Of a stretch of 64,000 nucleotides of DNA, positions 8,301-54,726 are shown piece by piece. A model generated the notes under the pieces. It had not been told where the DNA came from, did not search any database, and was given only the letters and a program-made list of their open reading frames with translations. How positions within the stretch are numbered: position 1 is the stretch's first letter; each line of letters starts with the position of its first letter. Source of the stretch: Candidatus Buchananbacteria bacterium (GTDB lineage Bacteria; Patescibacteriota; Patescibacteriia; 2-01-FULL-39-33). The translations under genes were made by a program, and so were the position numbers. The stretch covers positions 7,392 through 71,391 of the forward strand of contig JBAYFY010000003.1 in assembly GCA_041666945.1 (NCBI GenBank), given 5' to 3'.

Positions 8301-11300
8301 TAACTGTCCAAAATACCGCTGTCTAATTTATTATTCCGGCAAGTGCCGCTCTTCTCGGCCGAGTTAAGCAAGCAAGTGGCGCCGCAACGTTTGTCAGCTC
8401 CGTTTTTTCCTGAACCGTCGTCACACTCTTCTCCGGTTTCTATTCGATTGTTGCCGCAAACCGGCGCGCTCGGCGCGGAACCGGTATGCAGACAATCGGC
8501 AGTGCAGCCGACGGAATTTTTAAAGCAAACTTTAGAAACCGCAACGGAGCGCGCGCTGACCTGAATGGTAGTGGTGCTGATATTGTTATTATCGCAATTT
8601 AAGGCCGCATACTTGCCGCTGCCGGACGCATAACCGGCTTCATACAAACACTTAGAACTGCAACCGTCGGCGGAATTGGCATTGCCGTCATCGCACTGCT
8701 CGCCGTATTCTATCCGGGCGTTGCCGCAACGGGAATTCCAACGCGCGTTAGCGCCTTCCCATAAACAAACCGCGGAACAACCGTCATTATTTTTGATATT
8801 GCCGTCATCGCAATCTTCTCCCGGTTCAACCAGCTTATTGCCGCAAGAAGCCGAATTGGAATTGCCTTTGGCGCGGCAGGACTCGTCGCAATAATCTCCG
8901 GCCGAAAAAAGCTTGCCAACCTCATCGGCCGATAAGGCGCGATTATAAACTTTTAGTTCATCAATCAAACCGTCCCATTGCCCCTGATCCAGATAATCGG
9001 CGCGATGCCCGATTCTAAGAGGCGTGGCTAAATCGTAAGCGACAGAGGAAATAGCGGTTTTTACGCTCCCCGCTTCTTGGCCGTTGATATACAACTTAAT
9101 GCTGTTACCCGGGATAAAAACGCCCGTAACCAATGTCCATTTGCCGCCGTAATTGCTGAAAAAGTCGGGATAAGTAACGACGGCGCGCTGGCCGCTGTTG
9201 TCAAAAATCTGGAAGAAAATTTCATCCGGCGCCGGGCACCCCCAACGTAAGGCGCAGCCCCAATCATCGCCTAAAGTCCAACCTCTAAGTTGTGAAGCGT
9301 CATCGCTGTATTTATAAGTTGAGGCGATAATACCCAAACCGCGATCATCTTTGGCATCGGCCAGACCTAAAACACCATTATCCAATCTCACCCAAGCCGA
9401 GATGGTTAAAGGATTACTATTCTTCAGTTGGCTGACCAAACCAGCCGAATTAGTTGTTTCCAAAGCGGTTTGGCCGGTGGAACCGACAAATTTCGGCGCT
9501 TGGCCGAAAGGACTGCCGACAAAAGAAATATTGGTGTTGCCGGCTGAACGTAAAGCATAATTATGGCCGGAGCTGTCAATTAAATTATTTCCGGCGGCAA
9601 ATTTATAATAAGCCACTAAAGCGGCGTCTTGGGCCGCACATTCGGCTAAAGAAGTATCGCATAGGTCTTCGCCTTCTTTTATTAAACAGGTGCTGCTATC
9701 GCAAAAACCATCATAAGGATCGCCGGGACGGAAAGGATAAACCGTGGGGTCGCATTGCTCGCTGCCTTTGCTTTGGCTGGTGGCGTAGTTTAAGCCGCCC
9801 AATTGGGAATTAGCAAAAGATATCGGCCCAGACGATCCGCCCTTAACCACAACCCGGTAAGGCGTAGCCGTAGCTAAAAGACCGACTGGTTTTACCGCCA
9901 CTTCATTAGTGAATTGCTGTTCAGCCAAAGTCGGATAAACCAAATTAAGAGGTTGATTGGCGCCGCTTATAACGCAAGCCGCATCGCCGACGGCGCATTG
10001 ATACAAAAGTATATTGTCATTTTCCTTCAAACTGGCGCTGATGGCATCGGTCGTGAATTTGAATCTGACTTCAGTATTTAAGCAGGCATCATTAGTCGGA
10101 TTTATTACTTTGAAACCGCCATAACCTATTTGCAACTCGCCTCGGCCCCATTTATCAGCGGAACAAGTCGCTCCGCCTTGGGCTGAACCGACGGCTCGGG
10201 CTTTAATATTGGTAAAACCCTCACTATTGCCGAACACTTTAACGACAGGGGCGGAGCCAGTATAAACAACAGGGCAAACACCGGCGCTGGAAACAGAACA
10301 AATTTGCGCTACGCCATTGCCGGTAGCGGCATTGCAAGCGGTATTTTCATCACTTAAATTAAGGAGAGAACTCCACTGCCAAATATACAAATAAGGATTC
10401 AAATGCTGGCATTTATGTTGCGGATCGGCAATGTAAATCTGGCTTTCATCAGTATATTTCATGAGTTTCTTTTGCGGTAAAACGCCGACAAAATCAATCG
10501 GGCAATCAACTGCTCCGGTCTTAAAATACCAAAAATAATCATTTTGCCCGTCGCTAAAATAATTATCGCCCAAAGACGGGGTCTGCAAGACGCCTTCTCT
10601 CACTTCATCTATGCCTTGTTTACTCTTGGCTCCCCTCACTCCGTTATCACCCCCCAAGATTATGACGCGATAAAAGGTATTGGGATCAAGCCGAACCGGA
10701 CCGCTATTATTAAACGGGCTCAAACGAATGCCTTCGGCCGCCAGAGAATCATATTGCTCCGCCGGCGCGCTGACAATTTCCTGCCAAGACAAATCGCTAT
10801 GGCTGTAATTAAAAATATCCAGTTGCCATTTGCTTAAATCTATATCCGCGCAAGCGTTTAAAGAAGTGGATAAAACATCGTTAGCGGCGTTTGTCCCGGC
10901 GCATTTTTGCACTTTAATTCGGGTTCTATCCAAAGTTGCGTTTGTCATGTTACGGCTGAACAACGCCAAAAGCGAGGCGTTAATGCAGGCCTCGGTGGTT
11001 GTACCCCTAAATGGCGACGGGCTTTGCAACTTTCCGGCCAAACCATTGTCGCCGACGACACAAACGGGATTTTCCACCACAATCGGATCGGTAAAATTAT
11101 TATGGCCCGGGCAGGTCCCGCTGTTGCCGGTAGTCAACTCTATGCTGGCGATGCGGAAATAACCCTGATCGGAGGAAGTAAACAAAGCGTCCTGGTAAGT
11201 CCGCCAATCGCTTTCTTTTTGCGCCGTAGAAGTGGCTTTAGACCTAATAAAGTCGCTAATGATTGAATAATTATTCGTGCCTTTGGCCCAGATGCCGTTT

Positions 11301-14300
11301 GTCTGCTCTTCCTCCTGCCAACTCCAATTAAAGGTATCGGCGTTAAGCATAATGCAAACATTATCTTCGCTCAAAACATCGGATTTATGCGGCCGTTCCT
11401 GGCCATAATAACGGTTGACGAATTTCTGCGGCGAACAATGCACGCAACCGACGCGGCAATATTTATCATTGTCTCCTTGGCTGCGAGTATGAAAATTCCA
11501 ACAGAAAGCGGCATGGGGGAACTTTGTCAAATCATCGCAACCTCCGGATTGCAACGCTTGCTGGTCCACATAAAGCGGAAACCCTTCATAACTGACAACT
11601 CCGCTGGTGAGCACTACTTTGTAATCAGTATCGGCCTCTAAGGTCTGCGGCATGAATTCAAAATAATCAAATAAATCGGGACTGCCAAGATCGCGGCTGG
11701 CATAAGAACTGAAAGAACCGTTGGGTATGACCGGCTGCCATTCTCCGCTAACGTCTTTTTTGTAGATTTTCAAATTTTTCCAACCTGGCATGGTTAAATC
11801 AGTTTCAACTTCGTTCAATGACTTTACGTCCATCGGCCTATTAAATCTGGCGGAAATAGCGGCGTTCAAGCAGGCCTCGGAGTTAGTTACTCCGGCGGTA
11901 GCCATTGTCCATCTATCTGAGGGAGTCGGCGAGGGAAGGTTGTCCCCGTCTTTGCAAGCTGAACCGCGCGAACAATCCACGACAACGTAAAACTTTTTCG
12001 GTCCCAACTCATGAGTGGCCAAAAAAGTCCAAGAATACAGCGACAACGAGGCCTGTTGTCCTGTCGGATAACAAACTTGATTGGGCAACGGTTCGCAACC
12101 GCCCCAGTGGCCGTTGGCCTGACAGACGCGTTGCTGTTTGCAATTACCCAAATCAGGGCAACTCTTTAAATCAGTTTGATTGGGAGTGCACAACTGGGCT
12201 GCAGGTACGCAAGTGCAGGCCTCATGCGCCAACGAGATTTCATTAATTACCAAATGATCGGTGGAGGACGACTGACCGATTTTATTGGTTTGACCCGGGG
12301 AGGAATTGGGGAAATAGACAAAATCTTTAACTGAACCCGTATACAAGCCGTCAACCTTTCTTCCCCAAGAGCCGGGCGAAAAAGCAACGGTGGAAGAATT
12401 ATAAATTATAATATCGGCAATCTCATCACCCAGGCCTTTGATAAAAGCTATAGTGCCTTGATCTTTTCTAAGTTGGAAATTATTACCGGGATTAAGGGTG
12501 GATGTGCTGATGATGAAATAATTGCCGGCTTCCAGGATAACGCCTCGCGGTATAAAATAAGTGGCCGCGCTGCTATCGCTCAACAAATCAGCGATGCTTT
12601 CTTGCCGGCCGGAATAAACGATACGCCAATCATCCAAGCTAACGGGGGAAACGGTGGGATTATATATTTCCACCCACTCTTCATTAGAACCAGCAGTATC
12701 GCAACCCAAATCATTGCCGCAATTTTTAGGATCGCAAGTGCCATCCTGCCATAAATCGGACAAACAACGACGGCCGGCCTGCGGCGAAAGCGAGGCCAAG
12801 AACGACCAAGAATACAAACCTAATGAAGCTGGATTAGTCCCCAAATAGGGCACGCAAGCAGAATCATTTTTAACACAAACTCCCCAAGTATTGTCCGCCC
12901 GGCAGGTTTTCTGGCCGAGACAGCCGCCTAAATCGCAACCCATGACGGCGTTTTGCGCCGGATCGGAATTGTAAACGCATTCCTGGCCGGCAGCTTTTTG
13001 GCAAGTGCAGTTCTTGGCCATATCGCAATCAACGCGATAAAACCATTTACCGATATCCTCCGACTTATTGCTGCAGCCCTGGCAAGTCAAATTGCTCCGG
13101 CAATCGGCGCTGGAAGCAAAACACACGGCCGGATCACCGCCGATATTGTCACCGCAGGAATCGCCTTCGGAACCATTGCCGATATTGAATAAAACGGAAT
13201 TGCTATAACCGCCATTGTAAACTCTGACCACTGAATCGCCACGCCTGCCCTCCGGCACAACATCTTTAACTGTCGTGTCGGTCCAAGAGACGGCGGCGGT
13301 GGAAGTTACGCCGACTAAGCGCCAATAATTCACACTGGAGTCGCGAACATACCAAATTACTTTGCCCGTACCGTCGGCGGCAAAGCCGCGACCTGTCAAA
13401 TCAACGGCTGTCGGATAAACGCCGCTGGTCGGATCAATTGAGCATAAACCGGGCAATTTGATATTATTAGCTAAAAAATCCCAAGTATTGCTCACTAAAG
13501 GCGATTGCGGCTTAGTTTTATTGATGACCTCAATTTTGTAATTGGCCGGCAAATCATTAACTGAATCCAAACCAGTCGGCACTTCAATGACAATCTTGTT
13601 ATCCTGCCAGACCGAGGCGCAGTCGGCTAATTTGGCTAAGGTGATTGCTCCGCTGTTTTTGGCGACAAACCTGACCTCGCCGGCCACTCGGCCAAAACCG
13701 CGACCATAAACAGTCAGATAATTACCGGCGGCGCCATAACCGATATCATCGTCCAAAGTATTAATATCACGCAAACTGCTGTCATTATTAGGATCAAAAG
13801 ACGGGTCAACCCAGGTAATCACCGGATTTCCGACGCAATAACAATTCGCGCCGCAATAATTGATGCAATTGGAATCGTCGCACACCGGGCTGTCGGGACG
13901 GGTGCAGGGAAAATCCGAACAGTTCTGGGCGCAACCGCCGCCGCAATCAATACCTTGTTCATCCACGTCCTTAACGCCGTTAAAACAATGACTGGGAGAA
14001 AATTTAGCTTGGATTTTATTGGAGGGATAGGATTTATTATTGGCAAAAGATCGCAAAGTGGTGGAAGACAAACTGTCGTATTCGGCCAAAGAGGTATCCC
14101 AGGAAAGAGTGGCGGCCGCGGCATTATATTGCTGATTATTGATGGTGATGATTTGTGAAACGACATTGGCCGAACCGATTTGTTTTTCCGTATTATCTTT
14201 AAGATCAAATAATGAGAGTTCGCTGACGGCATCATCCGCATTGTAAGAATAAACCTTGACTTGCAAAGTCGGGCTCTTGGGCACTTGCACGCTGCCGTAA

Positions 14301-14920
14301 AAACCCACAGTGCACTCGCGACTGCGCCGCTCTTGCGGCCAATTGGGAAAAGCCGAATCGGAAAACTCGCAAATAGTCACTTTTTTCTTTGTGCTGTCAG
14401 GCAAGCAATCGGCGCCGATGCAATTCGGTATGCAACTGGGATCAGTCAGAACGCAACCGCCCCAAAACTCGTCATCACCGCAAATCTGTTGGCCACCGCA
14501 ACCGCCGCTGCTGCAAGATTTGATATCGCCGGGAGTACACGGCTGCCCTTGAGGATTGAACCAGGACATTAAAAATGAAGCGATGGCAAAAGCGGAAAAA
14601 ATGATCACTAAGCCGATAATCGCATTATAGATCATTTTTTTGGCTTTATTGACTTTATCCGGATCGCCTCCGGCCGTCATCCATAAAAAGCCGGCGTAAA
14701 TAATTAGCAGTAACGCCACCACGCCCAGTAAACCGAAAACAACCTGCAGAATGCGACCGATAATCATACCCAAACTGGCAGTACCGAAAATTCCTGACAA
14801 ACTTTCTAATGTGGGCGCGCTTGGAGTTTGCGCCCAGGCAAAATTACCGACGGCAAAAAATGCCGCCAATATCAGCAGGGAAAAAACGATTTTCAATTTT
14901 GTCTTGCGTTTTACAGGCAT
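2330..14920 (-). CDS. Giant (4196 aa) secreted, extremely cysteine-rich multidomain surface protein. Signal peptide plus VirB2/TrbC-like two-helix pilin-like N-module; IPT/TIG-like domains; lamin-tail domain; LamG/concanavalin-A-like jelly-roll; Myxococcus-type cysteine-rich repeats (CGNxxxExGExCDDGN).
   Basis: Single uninterrupted 12.6-kb ORF. N-terminus MPVKRKTKLKIVFSLLILAAFFAVGNFAWA (signal) followed by GRILQVVFGLLGVVALLLIIYAGFLWMTAGGDPDKVNKAKKMIYNAIIGLVIIFSAFAIASF (two TM helices). EWVEIYNPTVSPVSLDDWRI is LTD-like. LTISAWVRLDN...LYINGQEAGS...IDELKVYNRALSADEV is LamG-like. CGNKLVEPGEDCDDGN, CGNARIEYGEQCDDGN and CGNNRIETGEECDDGS are MXAN Cys-rich repeats. Confidence 0.8.
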   Translation of the reverse strand: MPVKRKTKLKIVFSLLILAAFFAVGNFAWAQTPSAPTLESLSGIFGTASLGMIIGRILQVVFGLLGVVALLLIIYAGFLWMTAGGDPDKVNKAKKMIYNAIIGLVIIFSAFAIASFLMSWFNPQGQPCTPGDIKSCSSGGCGGQQICGDDEFWGGCVLTDPSCIPNCIGADCLPDSTKKKVTICEFSDSAFPNWPQERRSRECTVGFYGSVQVPKSPTLQVKVYSYNADDAVSELSLFDLKDNTEKQIGSANVVSQIITINNQQYNAAAATLSWDTSLAEYDSLSSTTLRSFANNKSYPSNKIQAKFSPSHCFNGVKDVDEQGIDCGGGCAQNCSDFPCTRPDSPVCDDSNCINYCGANCYCVGNPVITWVDPSFDPNNDSSLRDINTLDDDIGYGAAGNYLTVYGRGFGRVAGEVRFVAKNSGAITLAKLADCASVWQDNKIVIEVPTGLDSVNDLPANYKIEVINKTKPQSPLVSNTWDFLANNIKLPGLCSIDPTSGVYPTAVDLTGRGFAADGTGKVIWYVRDSSVNYWRLVGVTSTAAVSWTDTTVKDVVPEGRRGDSVVRVYNGGYSNSVLFNIGNGSEGDSCGDNIGGDPAVCFASSADCRSNLTCQGCSNKSEDIGKWFYRVDCDMAKNCTCQKAAGQECVYNSDPAQNAVMGCDLGGCLGQKTCRADNTWGVCVKNDSACVPYLGTNPASLGLYSWSFLASLSPQAGRRCLSDLWQDGTCDPKNCGNDLGCDTAGSNEEWVEIYNPTVSPVSLDDWRIVYSGRQESIADLLSDSSAATYFIPRGVILEAGNYFIISTSTLNPGNNFQLRKDQGTIAFIKGLGDEIADIIIYNSSTVAFSPGSWGRKVDGLYTGSVKDFVYFPNSSPGQTNKIGQSSSTDHLVINEISLAHEACTCVPAAQLCTPNQTDLKSCPDLGNCKQQRVCQANGHWGGCEPLPNQVCYPTGQQASLSLYSWTFLATHELGPKKFYVVVDCSRGSACKDGDNLPSPTPSDRWTMATAGVTNSEACLNAAISARFNRPMDVKSLNEVETDLTMPGWKNLKIYKKDVSGEWQPVIPNGSFSSYASRDLGSPDLFDYFEFMPQTLEADTDYKVVLTSGVVSYEGFPLYVDQQALQSGGCDDLTKFPHAAFCWNFHTRSQGDNDKYCRVGCVHCSPQKFVNRYYGQERPHKSDVLSEDNVCIMLNADTFNWSWQEEEQTNGIWAKGTNNYSIISDFIRSKATSTAQKESDWRTYQDALFTSSDQGYFRIASIELTTGNSGTCPGHNNFTDPIVVENPVCVVGDNGLAGKLQSPSPFRGTTTEACINASLLALFSRNMTNATLDRTRIKVQKCAGTNAANDVLSTSLNACADIDLSKWQLDIFNYSHSDLSWQEIVSAPAEQYDSLAAEGIRLSPFNNSGPVRLDPNTFYRVIILGGDNGVRGAKSKQGIDEVREGVLQTPSLGDNYFSDGQNDYFWYFKTGAVDCPIDFVGVLPQKKLMKYTDESQIYIADPQHKCQHLNPYLYIWQWSSLLNLSDENTACNAATGNGVAQICSVSSAGVCPVVYTGSAPVVKVFGNSEGFTNIKARAVGSAQGGATCSADKWGRGELQIGYGGFKVINPTNDACLNTEVRFKFTTDAISASLKENDNILLYQCAVGDAACVISGANQPLNLVYPTLAEQQFTNEVAVKPVGLLATATPYRVVVKGGSSGPISFANSQLGGLNYATSQSKGSEQCDPTVYPFRPGDPYDGFCDSSTCLIKEGEDLCDTSLAECAAQDAALVAYYKFAAGNNLIDSSGHNYALRSAGNTNISFVGSPFGQAPKFVGSTGQTALETTNSAGLVSQLKNSNPLTISAWVRLDNGVLGLADAKDDRGLGIIASTYKYSDDASQLRGWTLGDDWGCALRWGCPAPDEIFFQIFDNSGQRAVVTYPDFFSNYGGKWTLVTGVFIPGNSIKLYINGQEAGSVKTAISSVAYDLATPLRIGHRADYLDQGQWDGLIDELKVYNRALSADEVGKLFSAGDYCDESCRAKGNSNSASCGNKLVEPGEDCDDGNIKNNDGCSAVCLWEGANARWNSRCGNARIEYGEQCDDGNANSADGCSSKCLYEAGYASGSGKYAALNCDNNNISTTTIQVSARSVAVSKVCFKNSVGCTADCLHTGSAPSAPVCGNNRIETGEECDDGSGKNGADKRCGATCLLNSAEKSGTCRNNKLDSGILDSYSWTFQLDQNAQYCEPFGVGLNPCPNGIWQFHPAKDVSEFTITLYKGYNGTTAPSGDCIAANNLGFWQRTIKQLVSFVKRMFGLRSVMAADYWCKLSEKTFDSSALQQMRWGNFQDSASFTTREGVTNNLEIIGYSVDNDSYELNYINKNNNWEANTEYRAAISYIKSKVRATTAATVLTFATACQIKKVTTNVWPKGDQKTVDSFFCNSDPAQGKPDDCGRYSADPYDDDMSAIWTNNPSQSGYSLDATGAPIVAEGVSYKSGNQHLYRSWARDGHGYPLRASFSWVLSNLNTDMVSSTVDYTNNNSFDIWMTPGKKTGKSILSISAADNNAANNGVNVGEGRGTMSIMNVECDNPWPAARYFPFEDTNANCKDGDSSSCINTNFWTWYCRDSGAANVCVMGDNTGQACQSQNDCFANGQYVEGSCRLYQDDDLPSIGDFTYDSVTNVIKPSTAVVIGGGDESCVNLPNTFVPKFGYYNNGDGKLYLWNSKGEVYARESIVGGESWHKVDKAPWQAAGLPANFKPVLGYYFNDDNSNCPAEAVQFWDAAGKYLTLKNGQWVTGSKYVGPKTNLPANFHPLAAYTYTLTIGGSEKTYLEIMDTDGNYAYWQQPNSCNNANDLPRWSEVKKEETRGLPADFKLATAYNVGNVLHVWSARGDHYRADVTAINFIFSKDDSAKSGLISGFKPVIAYYDNSYAGTGMPAEIISDGKFYYYKISNSWQRFTLQEKDCDAKVKEFLFTRSTTASAAAEAQIYLSAKDADFSDVDRVCGADTNCQPQIWADGSTVQMNANYSGLKFNFDVKSKGKYYVFLQTSDGFKALPGLVQKVDLKVDNNPTSTESIEASAPDDQQTTRFGTAAGAAYELDRGSHSALVRWTNDTPAGAAVDSNFRLYNIRLVKQESADLLDAVGIRVYDNNSHYSPARWYANRFGGKNNNPKSLLVDGYQAVSDGRTVYVAAADLTNDATQIYSSVYLMSYNLDANESTINIFNQLVNNWEFNVGDNLNPGEHSGGLYYNDSGENLKGCDNNPSGQDYCLTDIDCLKRGQSYCLSQKAKLIRDTKRLADVQEINVRLKNYYDQTRCSNDLAKICKTTANCSGSGVCGNYYPDLKSGTYIANKSYSAWPSWQQTLAAVLGGGNLPVDPINKFVGCASPASSVTCWNEDTKTMTCPSADSAVYSYIAANSGNSVTLSVKQEFGSNSNAWQPSWRLVPGLMYYNNAAGLRQNPFESYFVSSMCAALPPTCGNGQMDAGENCSNCYLDNACPISQSCQNQGGLWGCYAITNCGNGIKDVSEECDSGIGCTNCRCDSGYNCSGLTPFPVCGDGLIRGDETCEFDPATGKAFCEATAGAGCCCRYPTDPGCSGFCQCKAGYNCPSATPVINCGNGIKEPGEACDCGNTGYTPLPKPPLNLFECLANNGSNNQLYSNLRKGDSYQSCSADCQSIITAKFAYCGDGVVNGGEQCDSGQCCDGSCQWIIGGKPDDNQPGVTTKCNGDISQNAGECAVGYQWVSGRGCEPRIGQVCNEAGNCQCDTANNFVNTSTDPILLNCVCRTGYILKTGICQAIPLGQKCQDTENPVSLGNGTCTTCQEWCNLSEVPTAVGQANWDFYSSHTGFIWSVNNDPCRQTQVKGVACSPNPDIWSCAAAGNSCSDFSSCRTEIKYGPYCGNGVWDSQWETNKINDESADPEADGSNTYPKISDLTFCSDAPTGNLADPNASLDWNLPAYTGDADDYIIWKSNIPPQATQNSWEVHLLPYQGECVSGNSLSFDNELLGSVTEEGPYRISAKTKYSNSTDSLFLLFLKPSGLACFMANWDADKDYNCWWGCPGTHYRKGDTIYSPVTRDNSNANAFTMSNSSGFVCTNNGEIIGSNQFLLYDKDCRLISGQASANGAYISSLKYHQPIKIRFLRAYLDGQNYKIEDKWLTLDGSGNLIVGAAASEEDSKEYTGATLSSYSSFASKPLINCLNTCSANAGSANYCFEFRNRWGNIE

Positions 14921-24100: not shown

Positions 24101-26965
24101 TCAAGTTACGATGGAAATTAATTTTCCCTTAATGAAAATGATTTTTTTCGGTTCGCCAATTAAATATTTTTTGACGTTCTTATCAGCCAAAGCAGCTGTC
24201 TTAACCGCTTCTTCGGTTGCATCTGTCGGCAAAATCAACTTAGCCCTGATCTTGCCGTTAACCTGCACCGGAATTTCTTTTTCCGCATCAATAATTTTTT
24301 CCGGATCGTACTGCGGCCATGACTCTTTGAAGATGCTATCCGTATGACCGAGTTTCTCCCATAATTCTTCGGCTAAATGCGGAGCGAAGGGAGACAAGAT
24401 GATTAAAATCTTTTCCCATTGCTCCCGACTAACGGCTTTAGCGTCGGGAATTTCATTAAACAAAATCATCATGGCGGAAATAGCGGTATTATAACTCATC
24501 GTTTCAATATCTTCGCCGACTTTCTTGACGGTTTTATCAAGTATAACTTCTACTTCGCTCTTCTCTTCTTTACTTAGAGTTTGCCGGCCGATATCCCACG
24601 CCTTATTCAAAAACCGGTGCACGCCCAAGATATTCTTGGTGCTCCAGGGCTTCATATCTTCCAAAGGGCCCATAAACATTTCATACAGGCGGAAAGTGTC
24701 AGCGCCGTATTCTTTCAGGATGTCGTCGGGATTAACCACATTGCCGCGCGACTTAGACATTTTTTCGCCATCCTCGCCCAAAATCAAACCTTGATTGACT
24801 AACTTAGCAAACGGTTCTTCCTGCGGCACGACGCCGATGTCAAACAAAACCATATTCCAAAAACGGGCATAAAGCAAATGCAAAACCGCGTGTTCGGCTC
24901 CGCCGAGATACAAATCAACCGGCAGCCAATATTTCATTTTTTCGGCAGCAGCGATAGCCGTGTCATTATGCGGATCAATATAGCGCAGCCAGTACCAAGA
25001 CGAACCCGCCCATTGTGGCATGGTGTTGGTTTCGCGCTTAGCCGGACCGCCGCAGTTGGGACAAGTCGTATTCACCCACTCGTCAATAGTCGCCAGTGGC
25101 GATTCGCCTGTGCCGGTCGGTTCGTATTTTTCCACTTCCGGCAAAGTCAGAGGTAAGTCCTTCTCATCCAGAGTTACAGTTCCGCATTTCTTGCAATGCA
25201 CCAAGGGAATCGGTTCGCCCCAATATCTTTGGCGGGAAAAAACCCAATCGCGCAATTTATAATTAACCGCTTTCCGGCCATAACCCTTCTCTTCCAGCCA
25301 GGCCGTCATCTTGCTGATTGCTTCTGCCGGCGCCAAGCCGTTTAAAAATTCCGAATTAACCATCAAGCCGTTATTCACGTCCGTATAAGCAATATCGCCT
25401 TTCTTAATCCGTTCCAGCCAAATATCCATTTCGGCATGAACCATAAAATCAACCGTCAGTTTCTCCGGTTCCAGCCATAAAATCTCATTCTGCGCTTCTT
25501 TTTCTTCCTCGGCTATTTCAGCTTGTTCTTCATCAACCAAATCAAATTGGATTAAATTGGTATAAGACACCCGATTAACGCCTTTATGATTGGCAAAATA
25601 CTCGGCTCGCACTTGTCCGCCCAGAATCTTGCCGTTTGCCAAATGCTTATAGCCGGTTTCTTCCAGCACTTCCCGCTTAGCGGCGGCAAGCGGTTCTTCA
25701 CCTTCGCTCATTCCGCCCATGGGAAAAGTATTCCAGTTATATTTTTTTGAATGCAGAACAAGGATTTTTCCGGTTCGCGGATTGCGGACAACGACTTGAA
25801 CGTTTTTCCGTTCCACTTTTTCCTTGCCGTCCACTGGCGGATTTCTTTTGTCTATCCTTTCTGGAACAATGACTTCAATAATCGGCAAATCAAATTTTTT
25901 GGCAAATTCAAAATCCCTATCATCATGAGCCGGCACAGCCATAATCGCGCCCGTACCGTAAGACGCCAGGACATAATCGGAAATCCAAATTGGAATTTCC
26001 GCATTATTAACCGGATTGATTGCTTTAATGCCCTTCAACTCCATGCCGGTTTTATCTTTATTGAGTTCCGTCCGTTCCAAATCGGATTTATTTTTGGCAG
26101 AATCAATATAAGCTTCAACTTCAGCAAAATTAGAGATCTGGCCTTTCAATTCTTGCGCCAATTGATGTTCCGGCGCCAAAACCATGTAAGTCGCGCCGAA
26201 CAAGGTGTCGGGGCGAGTGGTATAGACAGTGATCTTTTTATCGCTTCCGGCAATCTTGAAGTCAACTTCGGCACCCTCGCTGCGGCCAATCCAATTTTTC
26301 TGCAAAATTTTAATGGACTGCGGCCAATCCAGCTGGTCAACGCCTTTCAGCAACCGATCGGCGTAAGCGGTGATCTTCAGCATCCACTGACGCATATCGC
26401 GGCGTTCCACTGCTGTGCCGCAACGATCGCATTTGCCGTTTTTGACTTCCTCATTGGCCAATCCGGTTTTGCACGACGGACAAAAATTAATCGGCACGGT
26501 CGCCTCGTAAGCCAAACCCTTTTTAAAAAGTTGCAAAAAAATCCACTGCGTCCATTTGTAATATTTCGGATCGGTCGTATCCACTTCCCTGTCCCAATCG
26601 TAAGAAAACCCGAGCGATTGGATTTGGCGCTTGAAGGTGGCGATGTTCTGTTCGGTGGTAAGCCGCGGATGCGTGCCGGTTTTGATGGCATAATTTTCCG
26701 CCGGCAAACCGAAAGCGTCCCAGCCCATCGGGTGCAAAACATTAAAACCTTTTAATCGCAAGTAACGGGAATAAATATCGGTTGCCGTGTAACCTTCCGG
26801 ATGACCGACATGCAGGCCCGCTCCCGACGGATAGGGAAACATATCCAAAATATACTTCTTGGGCTTGGCGCCGAAATCATCGGCTCGATCAATTTTGGTG
26901 TTCAGCCATTTTTTTTGCCACTTGGCTTCGCCGCCAGCGGCTAAAAACTCTTTATACGAAAGCAT
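24101..26965 (-). CDS. leuS: Leucyl-tRNA synthetase carrying an inserted NUDIX hydrolase domain of about 165 aa
   Basis: HVGHPEGY (HIGH), EKMSKSRGN (KMSKS), CP1 editing domain. Between ...FDLPIIEVI and [12 protein letters not shown] lies a domain with a perfect Nudix box [23 protein letters not shown] (GX5EX7REUXEEXGU). Confidence 0.9.
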
Positions 26966-41890: not shown

Positions 41891-42886
41891 CTAACACGCC
41901 GGAGCGAAACCCACAGCCGAGCCGAAATATCTTTCCGGCGTACTGACGAATCTTTCGAAGAATCGGACTACCCATTTCGAAGAACCGAGAACGCAAAAAA
42001 AAGATGCTGACTTGCAAAAATCAATCCGCGTTTCCAGCGGCGTATCGCAAGGACGAGTGTGATTATAATTATAAGGCGAGCATTCGGTGCCGGCGCAATC
42101 AATGCCCAAACAGCCGTATTGGCTGACAAGATCAGGATGAGTCAGCAAAGCGGCGGCCATAACATAATGGCATAAACCGAATTCATTCGCTTCATCATTC
42201 GCTTCATCTTCAAAACGGCGCCGGGCATGCCGGATACTGGCTCCGCGCCATCGCATGCCGAAATTAACCGGGATCACTAAATAATCGCCGGGCAGGTATG
42301 CTTCCATCTGGCCCAGAAAACCGCGAGTCCTGGCAGTGGGACGAAAACAGCCGTCATACTCCACTTCGTCACAGCAATTGCCCTCAAGAGGCAGCGACTT
42401 CTGAAGCAACCGAAACAATTCTTTCGCCGCCTTATAATAACCGCCCAGACAGGAAAACTTCGGCACAACAAGATCAAGCTCAAGCTTCTGGGGCAACGGC
42501 CGTTCCTCAAGATGCCGGTTTCCGGTAAGGCCAAGAATATGGGAGGCGTCTAAATCCCTGGTCAAATCCAGTTGGCGCCAAAAATCAAGCTGTTCTTCCA
42601 CCGAGCGGCGCCGAAAATCACTGGGGTAGACGCGGCTTGATTCCACCCGTTCCCTGGCATAAGGCAGTTTATCGGCATTGGGATCTTCATAACGCCCCTC
42701 AATCAAATCCTGCAACGGCTTCTTAATCCGTTTAGGATCAATGGTTCCCTCTCTAATGCGACGATGCAAATCTTCCGTTTGGTCAAAAATTCTTAGCCGG
42801 GCTACTTCCCGTTCAAGATAATTAATCGTCTCGTCCGCCGCTTTCAGCCGTTGCGCTTTTTCGTCTGCGACATTTTTTTCTGTCAT
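41891..42886 (-). CDS. Unrecognised family A, long member: N-terminal coiled coil plus conserved C-terminal core (PGDYLVIPVNFGMRWRGASIRHARRR...EFGLCHY...LLTHPD...FAPAC)
   Basis: GGAG RBS 8 nt before the internal ATG (MTEKNV...). The ORF track start is 28 codons further upstream with no RBS. Paralog of 50486..51346. Confidence 0.6.
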   Translation of the reverse strand: MTEKNVADEKAQRLKAADETINYLEREVARLRIFDQTEDLHRRIREGTIDPKRIKKPLQDLIEGRYEDPNADKLPYARERVESSRVYPSDFRRRSVEEQLDFWRQLDLTRDLDASHILGLTGNRHLEERPLPQKLELDLVVPKFSCLGGYYKAAKELFRLLQKSLPLEGNCCDEVEYDGCFRPTARTRGFLGQMEAYLPGDYLVIPVNFGMRWRGASIRHARRRFEDEANDEANEFGLCHYVMAAALLTHPDLVSQYGCLGIDCAGTECSPYNYNHTRPCDTPLETRIDFCKSASFFCVLGSSKWVVRFFERFVSTPERYFGSAVGFAPAC

Positions 42887-43059
42887 GACGAATTCTCCTT
42901 TGTCAAAGTCCTTGCCCTGTTGGCACTGCGCCGCTTGGGCCAAGCGAAATCCCAACCATTGGGATATCAAATAATGATATCAGGCCAGACAAATTTTGTC
43001 AAAGACCGCGGTTTGGCGGTTTAATTGAAAAAGCGACCGTGGCCGGCCGCTTCTTCTGG

Positions 43060-46000
43060 CTAATTAATTTTTTCAATCTTTATCTTCACTTTTTCGCCAT
43101 TGATGTTAACCGGCTTGGCGTCGCTGTCCGCTTCCGCGATTTCCTGGGTGAGGGTGGATTTTTTCAGTTCTGCGTTAAGCGCCGGATCGGCCAGGACTTT
43201 TTTCACTATTTCTCCTTCGCTTTGCCAGCTTAATCTGATTCTGTCTTTAATGGTCAAGCCGGCGTCCTTGCGCAAAGTGTTGATCGTCCTGACCAATTCG
43301 CGCCAAGCGCCTTCAATTTTCAACTCATCGGTCAATTTGGTGTCCAAGTCAATTTTAATTTCCGTCCCGCCGGCAAATTCCAAATTCTTAAGGTTCAGTT
43401 TGTCTTTAATCAAATTTATGAGTTGCTGTTTATACGATTCTTCGGCTAACGCCAGACCGTAAACCGTGGCCTGATTAAGCGGCTGCCTGATTTTTATCTT
43501 GGCCTCGGCTCGGGCGGACAAACCCATCTCTTCTATGGTAGCGACTAAGCTCATTTGCTCCTTCAATTTGTTGCTGGCGTCTGTTGCTTCCCGGCTGCCG
43601 TAAAATTCCTCATCAACCTGCGGCCAGGTCTCCAAATGAACCGATTCCAGTTTGCCGCCGATCTGCTTGTAAACATATTCGGCGATAAAAGGCGTGAAAG
43701 GCGCCATGACTTTGGATAATTCCATCAGAACGAAGCGGAAGGTGGCGATGGCTTGACGCTTGTCCGTTTCATCGTCGCCTTTCAGGCGGTCGCGCGACGA
43801 TTGCAGCCAGCGAGTGGAAAATTCATCTATAAATTCGGCCAGTGGGCGGGTGGCGCGCGGCAAATCATACGCTTCCATGTTTTTGGTCACCTCCAAAATC
43901 AATAAATTCAATTTTACCAGCAGCCATTTATCCAAAATATTTACGCTGTCGGCCGCTAACGACGCCGTCGGTTCCGAGGCCTCGTACAGCTTATAAAAAC
44001 TCAAAATATTGTTCAAAAGCATAGTAACTTTCTGCATCGCTTCCTTGACGCCGTCATCGGAAAAATTCAAATTCTCCGCGGCCATGACCGGCGCGGTCAA
44101 AAGATAGAAACGCAAAGCGTCGGCGCCGTACTTGTCCATGATGATTTTAGGTTCGGTGTAGTTCAGTAAATGCTTGGACATCTTTTTGCCGTCTTCGGCC
44201 AGAACGATGCCGTTGACGATGACGTTTTTAAACGCCTCGCCGCCTCTGATGGCCGCGGCAATGATATGCAAATAATAAAACCAGGCGCGCGTCTGATCTA
44301 CGCCTTCGGCGATAAACTGCGCCGGAAAGCCGGCCAGGAATTTTTCCTGATTGGCAAACGGGTAGTGCTGTTGGGCGTAAGGCATGGAACCGGAATCAAA
44401 CCAGGTATCCAGCACATCGGGAATCCTCGTCATCTTTTGGCCGCATTTGGGGCAGACGATTTGCCATTGATCCACGAAATGTTTGTGCAAATCGGTTATT
44501 TTCTGTTTTATCTCCAGCACTTGCCCTTTATCCAAAGCTAGTTCTTTGAAAGTCCGGCTCGGCTCGTAACCGTAAAGCTTGCCCAAAAGCGACCTGATCG
44601 CATCTTCATGGCTGACTAACAGGATATTCTTGCCTTTGTGCTTCTCATTCAATTCTTGGTATAGAGCCAGCATTCTTTCGGTCACCTGCCTGACGCTTTC
44701 GCCGCCGGGATAAGCCGCATCCCAATTGTCTTTCCATTTGGCGATAAACTCCCGGGCTCCGGCATCAATATCGGATTGCTCTTCCAGTCCGCCGGCGTTG
44801 AGTTCGTTCAGGCGGGAATCAAAAACCAATTCCGCGCCCGTGGCCGCGGCAATAATTTGCGCCGTTTCCTTGGCGCGCAACACTTCGGAAGAAACAATCA
44901 GATTAATTTTTTTGTCTTGCAGTCCGCTGGCGGCCGCTTGGATTTGCTTTTGGCCGGCGGCTGTCAAAGGATGGATGTTTAAGCCGCTGCTGAACACGTG
45001 CTTGATATTTTTTTCCGCTTCGCCGTGCCTGATGGCGAAAAAATTATTCCGATCTATTTTCAATTCTTCCAGTTCGGCCACGCTGCCGATGACTTTAATC
45101 TCGCCGCACTGGCAACGCCATAAAGGAATGACGCTGGCCCAGAAACGCTGGCGGGAAATCGACCAGTCGCGCGCGCCCAAAAGCCACTTGCCGAAACGGC
45201 CTTCCTTGATATGCGCCGGCGACCAATTAATTCCCTTAGCGGTCTCTAAGGCCTTCGGCTTGATATCCGTCACCTTGACAAACCATGAATCGGTGGCGTA
45301 GTTAATGAGCGGCGTATCGCAACGCCAGCAATGCGGATAGCTGTGCTCGTATTCGGCACTGGCAAAAAGCAGATTATTTTTGTCCAAATATTCAATGACT
45401 TTTTTGTCGGTCGCTTTGGTGTCTCCTGCCGGTTTGACGTTCAGGCCGGAAAAATCCGCGACTTCATCTTTAAAATTGCCGCTGAACGTAACATTCTGGA
45501 TCATGGGCAGGTTTTTCTCTCGGCCCAGTTGCATGTCCTCTTCGCCGTAAGCCGGAGCGATATGCACTACGCCCGTGCCGTCCTCGGTGGTCACGAAATT
45601 CGCTGATACGATAGTATACAAATTATCTTTATTAGGCAGATCCTTATCTAAATAATATGGGAATAATGGTTTGTATTTTTTACCAACTAATTCTGAACCT
45701 TTAAATTCTTTTACAATTTTATATTCTTGATTACCAAAAACTTTTTCTAATAATGCTTTTGCTAAAATCAACTGGATTCCCGCCTGCGCGGGAATGACGA
45801 TGGACACATAATCAACGTCCTCACCCACTGCGAGCGCCACATTGCCGGGCAAAGTCCAAGGCGTAGTGGTCCAAGCCAAAACAAAAGTATTGTCATTAGT
45901 AACAAAATCGCCGATTTTCTGTCCCGCCGCCAATTTAAATTTAGCGGTAACCGACAAATCCTTGATATCCTTGTAGCCCTCGCTGACTTCCTGCTGGCTT

Positions 46001-46563
46001 AAAGTCGTTTCGCATCTCGGACAAATATGCATGGATTTGTAACCTTGGTAAATCAAGCCCTTGTCGTATAATTCCTTAAACACCCACCAGATTGATTCCA
46101 TGTAAGGCAAATCCATGGTTTTGTAAGAGTCGGCCATATCCGCCCAACGTCCGAAACGGGCGATGGTTTTCTTCCATTCCTCAACATAGACCAAAACTTT
46201 GCTGCGGCAATACTCATTGAATTTGCCGATGCCGTAATCCTCAATATCTTTTTTGCTTTTGAATCCCAATTCCTTCTCCACGATATTTTCAATCGGCAAG
46301 CCGTGGCAATCCCAGCCCCAGCGGCGTTCCACGTAACGACCGCGCATCGTCCAGAATCTTGGCACCGCGTCCTTCATCAAGCTGGCCACCATGTTGCCGT
46401 AGTGCGGCGTGCCCGTGGCAAAGGGCGGGCCGTCGTAAAAGCTGTGGGCCTCGCCGTCTTTTGTCTGCTCCAGCGATTTCTCAAAAATCTTGTTATCGGC
46501 CCAAAATTTTTGGATTTCCCGTTCTCTTTCCGGAATCGGATTAATCCACTTCTTTTCTTCCAT
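43060..46563 (-). CDS. ileS: Isoleucyl-tRNA synthetase carrying an inserted histidine-phosphatase (phosphoglycerate-mutase-like) domain of about 185 aa between its zinc-knuckle halves
   Basis: PHYGNM (HIGH-type), KMSKH, CP1 editing domain (TTPWTLPGNVALAV). Between CQCGEIKVIGSVAELEE and CPKCGQKMTRIPDVLDTWFDSGS lies FFAIRHGEAEKN...LLVSHEDAIRSL (RHG and SH motifs). True start is MEEKKW at 46563; the ORF-track N-terminus (MVFFCFNNFNY) translates the leader U-run. Confidence 0.9.
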   Translation of the reverse strand: MEEKKWINPIPEREREIQKFWADNKIFEKSLEQTKDGEAHSFYDGPPFATGTPHYGNMVASLMKDAVPRFWTMRGRYVERRWGWDCHGLPIENIVEKELGFKSKKDIEDYGIGKFNEYCRSKVLVYVEEWKKTIARFGRWADMADSYKTMDLPYMESIWWVFKELYDKGLIYQGYKSMHICPRCETTLSQQEVSEGYKDIKDLSVTAKFKLAAGQKIGDFVTNDNTFVLAWTTTPWTLPGNVALAVGEDVDYVSIVIPAQAGIQLILAKALLEKVFGNQEYKIVKEFKGSELVGKKYKPLFPYYLDKDLPNKDNLYTIVSANFVTTEDGTGVVHIAPAYGEEDMQLGREKNLPMIQNVTFSGNFKDEVADFSGLNVKPAGDTKATDKKVIEYLDKNNLLFASAEYEHSYPHCWRCDTPLINYATDSWFVKVTDIKPKALETAKGINWSPAHIKEGRFGKWLLGARDWSISRQRFWASVIPLWRCQCGEIKVIGSVAELEELKIDRNNFFAIRHGEAEKNIKHVFSSGLNIHPLTAAGQKQIQAAASGLQDKKINLIVSSEVLRAKETAQIIAAATGAELVFDSRLNELNAGGLEEQSDIDAGAREFIAKWKDNWDAAYPGGESVRQVTERMLALYQELNEKHKGKNILLVSHEDAIRSLLGKLYGYEPSRTFKELALDKGQVLEIKQKITDLHKHFVDQWQIVCPKCGQKMTRIPDVLDTWFDSGSMPYAQQHYPFANQEKFLAGFPAQFIAEGVDQTRAWFYYLHIIAAAIRGGEAFKNVIVNGIVLAEDGKKMSKHLLNYTEPKIIMDKYGADALRFYLLTAPVMAAENLNFSDDGVKEAMQKVTMLLNNILSFYKLYEASEPTASLAADSVNILDKWLLVKLNLLILEVTKNMEAYDLPRATRPLAEFIDEFSTRWLQSSRDRLKGDDETDKRQAIATFRFVLMELSKVMAPFTPFIAEYVYKQIGGKLESVHLETWPQVDEEFYGSREATDASNKLKEQMSLVATIEEMGLSARAEAKIKIRQPLNQATVYGLALAEESYKQQLINLIKDKLNLKNLEFAGGTEIKIDLDTKLTDELKIEGAWRELVRTINTLRKDAGLTIKDRIRLSWQSEGEIVKKVLADPALNAELKKSTLTQEIAEADSDAKPVNINGEKVKIKIEKIN

Positions 46564-46596
46564 ATAATTAAAATTATTAAAACAAAAAAACACCAA

Positions 46597-50048: not shown

Positions 50049-50485
50049 GGCACTTCTCCTTGTAAGTTGTTCAGAGTAAGTTGTTCAGAACCGATTAATT
50101 GCAAAGCTGAATTTATTAAGCGATTTTTAATGTCCTTCAATAGTTTATTTTAATACCGGCCGATTCTAAAGTCAAGGGCTAAATTTGCAGATGGATTAAT
50201 AACGCCAAAAATTTGTCAAATCTTTACTGATTTCATTGGCCCGACAATGACTTAAAAGCCCCAAATAAGATTGCTGGCTCTGTTTTAATGATTTTCCGGG
50301 CATTTCTCCGCCCTCAAAAACAGCGGTTTTAAAAAGCAAAGATTTCGGCGACTAGAATTTTTAAATAATCCCAATGCATTATCCTAATTTCAAAATTATA
50401 ATAACATATCTGAAATTTTAAGTAAAAATAAAAAGGGCTTGAACTTCAAGAATCAAAAAGATTAAAGAAGTCCAAGCCGCAAGAA

Positions 50486-51346
50486 TTAACACTGCGGGGC
50501 GAAGGCCGACACCGAACCATAGTACGCATGGGCACTGTCGACGATATTGCGGTCAAATTCGAGACGGTCATCGCACGAATCGAAGCCGGCCGAGTAGCGT
50601 AAATCATCACCAGCACCCGGAGACCATTCACAACCAGCCATATCCATATACAACTGGTTATCGCCGATGATGCGATCGGGATGGGTAAGCAATAAACAGC
50701 CGCCGCTGTACGGGCAAAGGCCGAATTCCGTTTCGCTCAAACGAAATCTGGCATGGCGAATACTGGCGCCGGACCAACGTCTGCCAAACTGTAATGGAAC
50801 GACAAAGTAGTCGCCCGGCTGATATTCATTCAACCGCTGAAAACAACCGGCCGTCTTGACGGTGTGACGCCAACATTCTTTCCAGCCGATTTCATCGTCA
50901 CGGTAATTACAAAAATCGCGAGAATCAGTGAGCAGGGCAAAAATTTTCTTCGCGGCCGGACGCAATCCGCCGAGTCGCGAGAACTTCGGCCAGACGCCAA
51001 TAGCTTCCGCGCCTGGCGCTAAGCTCATCCGCTTCACTAAATCAGCGACCTGACTGCCATCCAACTTCTTGGTGAGCTTCTGGGCCTGCCAAAAACTCAA
51101 CTGTTCTGCCGGAGAACGGAAACGGAACTTCGGCGGATAATTGTAACTGGATGGGACACGCTCATTGGCGTAAGGAAGATTTGTGGTCCCCTCAAACTTA
51201 CCATCAATACCCCGTTGCAAAAATTCGCCCAACTCATGCGGGTCAAACTCGTAACCATTCGGTTGGCGTATCTGCTGCTTGATTTCAAACAATTTGCCAT
51301 CAATCCAGTGGTACAGTTCGCCTGTGACAACAACTCCTGTCGCCAT
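50486..51346 (-). CDS. Unrecognised family A, short member (286 aa), paralog of 41891..42886
   Basis: GAAGGAG RBS. Shares LPYAxERVxSSxxYPxxFRxRSxxEQLxFW ... PKFSxLGG ... PGDYFVVPLQFGRRWSGASIRHARFR ... EFGLCPY ... LLTHPD ... YYGSVSAFAPQC with the long member. Confidence 0.6.
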   Translation of the reverse strand: MATGVVVTGELYHWIDGKLFEIKQQIRQPNGYEFDPHELGEFLQRGIDGKFEGTTNLPYANERVPSSYNYPPKFRFRSPAEQLSFWQAQKLTKKLDGSQVADLVKRMSLAPGAEAIGVWPKFSRLGGLRPAAKKIFALLTDSRDFCNYRDDEIGWKECWRHTVKTAGCFQRLNEYQPGDYFVVPLQFGRRWSGASIRHARFRLSETEFGLCPYSGGCLLLTHPDRIIGDNQLYMDMAGCEWSPGAGDDLRYSAGFDSCDDRLEFDRNIVDSAHAYYGSVSAFAPQC

Positions 51347-51779
51347 GACAAAACTCCTTCTAATTAATGAACTTGTCGCGAATTCGGCGAAATGCCGCGG
51401 TCACAGCGCCGCTTTTGGCTTTTACAATAAAGCCAATAAATTATTATCTAAATCATCAAAATTTAAGCAATAATTTACTGTCTTTATTCCGATGTAAAAT
51501 TATATCATACAGACATAAATTCGTCAAACAAACAAATTTCTTGAAAGCTGAAAAATTTGACGAGATAACCATAAAAGCGTATATTTAAAACAGTGATTGA
51601 AGCGGCCACCAACCGCTTACTCCATAAAGAGTCCGGTCAGCCGGCTAAGCAAAAATCAAAGCGTCCGCCATCCGCCATCCGGCGGAGCGGAAACCCGGGT
51701 GGAACCGCGGGAACATCCCAGTTGAATAAAATCATTCAACGGGATAAACTCTCGTCCCGAAAATATGTCTTTAATTTAG

Positions 51780-52369
51780 ATGTGTTTTCAGGATGAGAGT
51801 TTTTTAAATAAATTTATGTACGGACCGACTTTAAAAGGAAAAAATATTATTCTTAAGCCGATTTCATTAAAAGAGGCCCCAACCTTTGTCAACTGGTTTA
51901 AAGACGAGAATGTTGTAAAATTTTTAGGTAAACAACACAAAGGACTGACATTGGCTAAGGAAAAGCAATACATCAAAAAAATGAAGAAAAATGAAGAGCA
52001 GATCATCTGGTCCATCTATACTAAACTAAAGATGGAACTCACATTGGCAGCACCGACCTGCACTCGCTAAACAAAGATCATAAAAAAACCGACTGGGGAA
52101 TTGTCATCGGCGACAAGAAATATTGGAATCAGGGCTATGGTCAAGATGTATTAAAAACCGTAATGAAATACTGCTTTAACGTCTTAAAACTTAATCGCTT
52201 TGGCCTCTCGGTTTATGAAGGCAATCTTGGCGGCATTAGATGTTATACCAAATGCGGGCTCAAAAAAGAAGGGATAAAAAGACAAAGCATTTATCGCTAT
52301 GGCAGATATTGGGACGAGATTATTATGAGCATGTTAAAATCAGATTATAAAAAACTAAAAAAGACATAA
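51780..52369 (+). pseudogene. GNAT (RimJ/RimL-like) N-acetyltransferase interrupted by a frameshift in an A-run near 52023-52031
   Basis: N-terminal half in frame 0 (...EEQIIWSIYTKLK). The continuation ...KDGTHIGSTDLHSLNKDHKKTDWGIVIGDKKYWNQGYGQDVLKTVMKYCFNVLKLNRFGLSVYEGNLGGIRCYTKCGLKKEGI... is in frame +2. The two halves together make a complete GNAT fold. Confidence 0.5.
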
Positions 52370-54350: not shown

Positions 54351-54592
54351 GGTATTGTAAAAAAGATTATAACCTGGATTCCCGCCTTCGCGGGAATGAC
54401 GAAAGGGGTATTGTAAAAAAGATTATAACCTGGATTCCCGCCTTCGCGGGAATGACGAAAGGGGTATTGTAAAAAAGATTATAACCTGGATTCCCGCCTA
54501 CGCGGGAATGACAAAGAGGGTGCGGGAATGACAAAGAGGGTGCGGGAATGACAAAGAGGGTGCGGGAATGACGAAAGGAGTGCGGGAATGAC
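54351..54592. repeat. Nested tandem direct repeats: three 56-bp units, each containing the hairpin GGATTCCCGCCTTCGCGGGAATGAC, followed by four 20-bp units (AAAGAGGGTGCGGGAATGAC)
   Basis: Units at 54351-54406, 54407-54462 and 54463-54512 are near-identical. The 20-bp units are at 54513-54592. No unique spacers between units. Confidence 0.75.
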
Positions 54593-54726
54593 AAAGGGGT
54601 ATCGTGAAAATTGAAACTCTCTTAATCACCCTTTCATAAAGGGGAGAAATAACCTGGATTCCTGGTCAAGTTTACCCCGTCTTTATGACTGGGGCCAGGA
54701 ATGACAAATAAAAGAATATTAAACAA

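Follow-up and report, generated by a model that had tools for sequence, protein, structure and literature searches.

Two related genes lie within 10 kb of each other in the window, the 64-kb stretch of DNA analysed here, which comes from a metagenome-assembled Candidatus Buchananbacteria (Patescibacteria/CPR) genome. What do they encode, and do they form, as a first-pass annotation had suggested, a novel enzymatic, toxin/defence-like or stress-related module with their neighbours? The reading that we favour, with a probability of roughly 0.85, is that both genes are members of a family of DGR variable proteins, that the short copy has lost its cassette by deletion with its variable region frozen, and that the long copy is older and DGR-less.

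Two paralogous genes and their putative expression signals

The two genes and the promoter-like sites upstream of them are as follows.

50486..51346, minus strand: short paralog, CDS (ORF) of 286 aa, GenBank WCT16_02575, 100% match to P0001; by homology a member of the Patescibacteria DGR variable-protein family
41891..42886, minus strand: long paralog, CDS (ORF) of 331 aa, GenBank WCT16_02545; apparently a diverged, DGR-less member of the family that it has in common with the short copy
51499..51527, minus strand: promoter-like site upstream of the short paralog, TTGACG-17-TATAAT, TG extended, sigma-70-like, 11/12 in a consensus scan (consensus match only)
42974..43002, minus strand: promoter-like site upstream of the long paralog, TTGACA-17-TATCAT, TG extended, sigma-70-like, 11/12 in a consensus scan (consensus match only)

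BLASTP aligned the long and the short protein over 283 columns with 38% identity (E 5e-52), which confirms that the two genes are true paralogs. All of the collinear motifs reported for them earlier were recovered in the alignment (LPYA.ERV.SS, PKFS.LGG, PGDY..GASIRHAR, EFGLC.Y, LLTHPD and the ending Y.GS...FAP.C with Cys as the last residue). The ribosome-binding sites were likewise found as described, with AAGGAG-N7-ATG at 51359-51344 for the short gene and AAGGAG-N8-ATG at 42900-42884 for the long gene. The long ORF has an alternative TTG start at 42970; GenBank and the homologs start at the ATG at 42886. The N-terminal coiled coil that had been assigned to the long copy turned out to be merely a longer helical N-terminus of low confidence; the motif LPYA begins at residue 74 in the long copy and at residue 57 in the short copy.

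A large family outside the curated domain libraries

Both paralogs had been called unrecognised, and neither found a match in Pfam, NCBIfam or PADLOC. Their sole match in PHROGs was weak (E 0.0036), to a family whose function is not known, and no credible match was obtained among PDB sequences, against which a profile search came back empty. Searches of these five sources were equally uninformative for the 247-aa and 217-aa neighbours. Weak Forkhead and phrog_29690 matches that arose in the library searches with the paralogs and these two neighbours were judged to be due to chance. The absence from curated domain libraries extends to the family, since no Pfam hit recurred among 116 members.

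A word-index homology search under-reported the family, with 8 relatives for the short and 3 for the long paralog, and an exhaustive profile search was needed. The latter yielded 1,748 cluster representatives at E <= 1e-3 and 584 at E <= 1e-30. Most family members are 230-310 aa long, and their conserved charged or polar core residues are E62, Q82, S195, R197, E207, H222 and R225. The terminal Cys is indeed the last residue of both paralogs, but the invariance ascribed to it is not family-wide and holds only in a small Buchananbacteria-related subclade. The relatives P0006 and P0007 end in Q and P0008 ends in LGV; the consensus ending of the family is YGSASGFLPQ, the FAPxC ending being confined to the closest relatives. 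The proteins are presumably cytoplasmic. A signal-peptide-like or membrane-anchor-like N-terminus is found in 3 of 158 family members (P0100, P0124 and P0156, each with either an N-terminal membrane anchor or a signal peptide of the lipoprotein type), so the family may act on either side of the membrane, depending on the lineage.

Homologs of both genes are variable proteins of DGRs

In a DGR, a template repeat (TR) located 3' of the target gene is transcribed, and the DGR reverse transcriptase (RT) together with the accessory protein Avd converts it into cDNA with misincorporation opposite adenines. This cDNA replaces the variable region (VR) of the target gene. The residues K, E, Q, M and W cannot arise from AAY codons.

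Precisely this architecture is seen at the loci of homologs, where the VR comprises the last ~43 codons and is followed by a downstream TR and then by an Avd gene and an RT. In L001, the first long contig with a homolog (P0006) and an adjoining bAvd gene, the VR at 10722-10850 (the last 129 nt of the gene) is 88% identical to a TR at 11180-11308, 458 nt downstream, and 15 of the 15 mismatches between them are at TR adenines. This TR reads ...NADGDFYNSANFNWYDGQLNFDNRNVDNANVNYGSASGFLP, its Asn codons coincide exactly with the sites that vary among homologs, and it is followed by a minus-strand Avd gene and by an RT that has a YTDD motif. The same architecture was found in L006. Locus L004, from another Candidatus Buchananbacteria genome, has the gene order response regulator, target, TR, Avd, RT, IleRS, with 11/13 VR/TR mismatches at A; in L007, one TR is common to two tandem targets (mismatches at A, 15/16 and 19/20).

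A metagenome scan with a 14-sequence family alignment added 80 family loci, 41 of which carry Avd and/or RT despite many short contigs. When only loci flanked on each side by 3 kb or more were considered, 20/30 carried a DGR cassette and 10/30 were without an adjacent DGR; because one third of the well-flanked loci thus belong to the latter group, cassette-less members may serve a role that is independent of a DGR. About 35 metagenome loci yielded VR/TR pairs in which 75-100% of the mismatches lie at A. What recurs next to family members is TR, Avd and RT; the RTs match PF00078 and are mostly labelled Patescibacteria. Family-wide, the 11 template-Asn columns have an entropy of 3.38 bits and contain K/E/Q/M/W at 11%, compared with 32% in equally variable columns preceding the VR. 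P0006 was recovered as four variants in different samples; these differ at three positions, and two of the three are template-Asn sites.

The short copy of the window is 62% identical to the DGR target P0003 and 51% identical to P0006. These sequence comparisons place both window genes in a large family of DGR variable proteins that is found mostly in Patescibacteria (CPR). DGRs of the CPR are known to form a clade of their own, with small targets that have no recognisable domains and no membrane anchors (PMC8144416; PMC5758913).

The short paralog retains a variable region beside a deleted cassette

Alignment of the short paralog and its 3' flank to L004 and L001 delineated four elements.

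50495..50623, minus strand: VR of the short paralog, aa 242-284, template gone; aligns to the VR and TR of L004
50436..50478, minus strand: inverted repeat GGCTTGGACTTC/GAAGTTCAAGCC, just 3' of the stop codon, with a T-run to 50424; also present in L004 and L001
50316..50485, minus strand: homolog of the VR-to-TR spacer, blastn match to L004 6769-6938 and to L001; homology stops at the deletion junction
50196..50345, minus strand: 3' remnant of the RT gene, last ~48 codons; aligns at the DNA level with the 3' ends of the RT genes in L004 and L001

Compared with the heterologous TR of L004, the short VR has mismatches at 17/30 adenines and at 20/100 other bases (odds ratio 5.2, p = 3.5e-4). Every one of the 11 template Asn codons has been replaced, by G, Y, G, D, C, E, R, I, S, H and Y. 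Synonymous divergence is about 0.5-0.6 in the VR versus 1.5-2.7 upstream of it, with values of 0.49 and 2.15 for the short copy; such a low dS is expected of DNA copied from a conserved template. Collectively, these data demonstrate that the footprint of adenine mutagenesis has been kept in the short copy.

The template itself is gone. No TR was detected in the 64-kb window by a repeat search or by blastn at word size 7, and neither Avd nor an intact RT nor a TR was found in the window or in the 8.7 kb past its left end. An Avd-like tblastn match at 25999-25739 lies inside the LeuRS gene and was rejected as chance. Homology between the window and L004 is continuous through the gene and the spacer to ~50316 and resumes at the 3' end of the RT gene; from this jump we deduce that a deletion of ~1.6 kb removed the TR, avd and ~85% of the RT. 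Residues 106-153 of the L001 RT match window positions 50345-50202 with 42% identity over 48 aa (tblastn, E 3e-6), and a 47-codon ORF at 50196-50339 corresponds to this segment. The alignments thereby show an RT remnant and a deleted cassette beside the short copy. As the window holds no TR, Avd or intact RT, the link of its genes to a DGR rests on homology, on the mutagenesis footprint and on the 48-codon remnant.

The mean column identity of the spacer in a three-way alignment of the window, L004 and L001 is 81%. Within it we observed a near-invariant element, AGTCGCCGAAATCCTTGCTTTTTA..AAACCG, at ~50320-50358 of the window (minus strand), at ~6900-6935 of L004 and at ~10995-11030 of L001. 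This element is conserved in the three genomes, where the flanking DNA is only 66-74% identical, and is kept in the window without a TR; it might act as a promoter or form a 5' element of the template RNA of the DGR. The inverted repeat GGCTTGGACTTC/GAAGTTCAAGCC, with weak covariation support, would be either a terminator or a hairpin following the VR.

The long paralog has no trace of template-directed diversification

At the 3' end of the long gene, two segments can be distinguished.

41927..42079, minus strand: VR-equivalent of the long paralog, aa 270-320; carries insertions when compared with the short type and diverges fast in the ordinary way
41894..41926, minus strand: tail FGSAVGFAPAC, 11/11 residues identical in all long-type orthologs; the subclade form of GSASGFLPQ

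The long-type orthologs P0010 (L002) and P0284 (L094) occupy the same site, downstream of IleRS and upstream of genes for a 217-aa protein, a GDSL lipase and an acyltransferase, and no RT, Avd or TR is present within 10 kb of either. Among the orthologs, the VR-equivalent is 44-57% identical, versus 72-74% for the region upstream, and it contains indels relative to the short type. With dS >= 1, this segment is without the low-dS signature of template homogenisation, and a footprint of adenine mutagenesis was not found in the long copy. We read the long copy as an older duplicate for which a DGR is no longer needed.

Neighbouring genes follow inherited gene order

The proposal of a functional module had drawn on the genes surrounding the two paralogs. 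The 247-aa, XRE, membrane and GNAT genes are absent beside family members in 94 loci (a set that does not include L094 and L095), which leaves the presumed co-occurrence unsupported. In the same set, the 217-aa gene was seen only in L002 and L005, two views of one contig, and follows the long type by local synteny. Beside the long-type ortholog of L094/L095, a gene of the HTH (XRE) type, an acetyltransferase gene and a 221-aa gene stand in syntenic positions, and in L002 the long type has no adjoining XRE, membrane or GNAT gene. The presence of HTH and acetyltransferase genes beside the long type is a gene order inherited in the lineage, not a family-wide association. A functional link to the aminoacyl-tRNA synthetase genes fared no better: their proximity reflects inherited gene order, and in L004 an intact DGR lies between the response regulator and IleRS.

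In both synthetases a hydrolase domain is inserted. The IleRS (43060-46596, minus strand) contains an inserted His_Phos_1 domain at aa 521-694 that is absent from the 958-aa IleRS of L004, and the LeuRS (24101-26965, minus strand) contains an inserted NUDIX domain at aa 386-513. Just upstream of the short paralog, a frameshift near 52020-52040 (frame 0 to frame 2) interrupts a GNAT-type acetyltransferase gene (51780-52345, plus strand), which is either a pseudogene or the product of an assembly error. A 4,196-aa ORF (2330-14920, minus strand) with T4SS_pilin, LTD and Laminin_G_3 Pfam matches and internal repeats encodes what we take to be a giant surface protein of the kind that is typical for episymbiotic members of the CPR.

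Predicted fold

Two AlphaFold models were confident (pLDDT 81 and 89, about 97 in the core). Foldseek returned no match at E <= 0.001 in PDB or BFVD, the BFVD search being empty. About half of the top 50 PDB entries for both models were C-type lectins, formylglycine-generating enzymes (FGE), PvdO and CarF, each individually non-significant. The DGR protein TvpA was among the Foldseek matches (all with E > 1 and at most 77 aligned columns), and hhalign against Mtd gave a probability of 0.2%.

DGR variable proteins are usually built on an FGE or C-type-lectin fold. A faint resemblance to FGE-sulfatase had been dismissed in the first-pass annotation. None of 116 members matched FGE-sulfatase (PF03781) or DUF1566 at E <= 1; given the scaffolds of DGR proteins, the resemblance is nevertheless the best lead available. 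These comparisons hint weakly at a possible C-type-lectin/FGE-like fold for the VR module.

Proposed history of the locus and alternative explanations

In an intact system of this family, ~130 nt at the end of the gene would be replaced by cDNA and about 11 Asn (AAY) codons would be randomised, and the C-terminal ~43 residues would present a hypervariable surface for ligand binding, carried by a conserved scaffold; we infer a ligand-binding role for the family. In the present genome, a deletion of ~1.6 kb beside the short copy removed the TR, avd and most of the RT, so that its VR would be frozen at one specificity. The long copy would be an older paralog with no DGR nearby in three related genomes, the VR-equivalent of which changes by ordinary mutation. 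A trans-acting DGR is probably not present elsewhere in the genome.

The last point bears on an alternative in which both genes are still actively diversified by a remote DGR encoded elsewhere in the genome. Remote or non-adjacent DGR targets exist in other lineages (PMC5758913), one third of the well-flanked family loci are without an adjacent cassette, and our search for TR, Avd and RT covered the window and 8.7 kb of a 111-kb contig. We nonetheless consider this scenario improbable. The cognate cassette was evidently deleted in place, leaving an RT remnant, and the VRs of the short and the long copy are too different, with indels, to share one template. The indels of the long VR-equivalent relative to the short type, together with its lack of a low-dS signature, also speak against continued templating. 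The short protein is moreover represented by one single sequence across NCBI, JGI, Logan and ENA records, and the long protein varies across records only in the called start. As weak further evidence, the WCT16 locus tag occurs on none of the best 120 of more than 7,600 related RTs.

Could the genes instead be functionless relics that are decaying after DGR loss? The deletion of the DGR is what one would start from, and the frameshifted GNAT gene just upstream of the short copy could be a sign of local decay, or of an assembly error. However, both ORFs are full length, each with a consensus ribosome-binding site and an 11/12 promoter-like site, and the long type has been kept at the same site in three genomes with 72-74% identity. 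Upstream of the VR, dN/dS is 0.14-0.15 for the short type and 0.18-0.30 for the long type, demonstrating that purifying selection acts on both copies; with values of 0.14-0.30, both genes are kept by selection and a relic status is highly improbable. We give least credence of all to the original proposal of a novel enzymatic or toxin/defence/stress module acting with hypothetical or XRE-regulated membrane neighbours. It could draw on the conserved charged and polar core residues, the lack of database annotation, the two copies within 10 kb, and the view that DGR targets as a class may be involved in virus-host conflicts (PMC8144416). PADLOC, however, found nothing for the paralogs or their neighbours, the one PHROG match is weak and of unknown function, and the partners that do recur with the family are TR, Avd and RT. 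The proposed neighbours are absent from the 94 loci, and the HTH and acetyltransferase genes of L094 reflect local synteny in the lineage.

Simple-sequence tracts in related reverse transcriptase genes

In 14 of 35 DGR RT genes adjoining family members, we observed a simple-sequence tract of G10 or (GA)n, 17-59 nt in length, inside the ORF and just before the motif G-[LIV]-P-[IL]-G.

G10 tracts in the RT ORF: L001 (~12248-12257) and L004 (~8165-8174)
(GA)n tracts in the RT ORF: L017, L025, L046/L047, L049, L055, L058/L059, L066, L076 and L086/L088

A tract is present in every one of the 11 RTs with halves that are out of frame, and the 21 RTs without a tract are all in frame. Loci L086 and L088 are 99.9% identical over 7 kb and have tracts of 31 and 33 nt, by which the RT is placed in or out of frame; a tract difference between L046 and L047 likewise toggles the frame. 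When read in frame, (GA)n gives (RE)n, which is present in the intact RT proteins P0184 and P0230. The tracts may represent phase-variable DGR control or assembly noise, and a published link between simple-sequence tracts and DGR phase variation was not found in the literature.

The window has repeats of its own at 54351-54608, where 56-nt (x3) and 20-nt (x4-5) tandem repeats contain the palindrome ATTCCCGC...GCGGGAAT; a copy with 66% identity lies inside the IleRS ORF (45749-45804). The GCGGGAATGAC motif of these repeats is also inserted in the RT ORFs of the Patescibacteria loci L033 and L035, at the position of the tract.

Implications

Taken together, the two genes are a genuine but unremarkable find. 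They belong to a DGR target family that can be recognised although it is uncatalogued, and in this genome the adjacent retroelement has decayed. A function class, that of the DGR variable protein, can now be attached to at least 1,700 sequence clusters outside the curated libraries, and two 'hypothetical proteins' become interpretable, which is useful for the annotation of Patescibacteria genomes. The locus also documents DGR decay in which the target is kept under selection while template, Avd and RT are deleted, and so bears on how often hypervariable receptors turn into fixed ones.

A more far-reaching interpretation would see in the family an unnamed, mainly cytoplasmic, DGR-diversified receptor scaffold, with a conserved N-terminal part of ~180 residues that has no known structural relative, with 'germline-fixed' binders (the two paralogs among them) kept under purifying selection after DGR loss, and with an RT that is phase-variable via (GA)n/G10 tracts. 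This combination is doubtful; if it were true, the tracts would constitute phase-variable control of hypermutation. No new mechanism is revealed by the locus itself, and the tracts in related RT genes, which lie outside the window, are the only potentially new biology.

Comparison with known systems

The closest known system is that of the CPR/Patescibacteria DGR variable proteins, described as DGR clade 2 by Roux et al. 2021 (PMC8144416) and as the 'CPR set' with unclassified UVR1-6 by Wu et al. 2018 (PMC5758913). The homologs described here resemble these targets in their C-terminal VR, downstream TR, adenine-specific mismatches, Avd and PF00078 RT, and the family proteins are, as in the literature, small, without recognisable domains and mostly without a signal peptide. 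The two window copies differ from them in having no TR, Avd or intact RT: the short copy lies beside a deleted cassette, and the long copy is DGR-less with insertions in its VR-equivalent.

With the solved DGR proteins of C-type-lectin/FGE fold, namely Mtd of phage BPP-1, TvpA (PDB 2y3c), the archaeal AvpA (PMC5006420) and TaqVP (PMC6328139), the family has in common a VR at the extreme C-terminus and a conserved tail of the type G-x-x-x-G-F. It differs from them in that no structural match is significant and in that the ~180 residues upstream of the VR are without a recognised structural relative.

A third point of comparison is provided by DGR cassettes that are degenerate or incomplete and by targets that are not adjacent to a DGR. 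As in these, the target is kept, RT, TR and Avd are missing, and an RT fragment marks the former cassette. Here, in contrast, the boundaries of the deletion can be placed against intact relatives, and the orphan target is under purifying selection.
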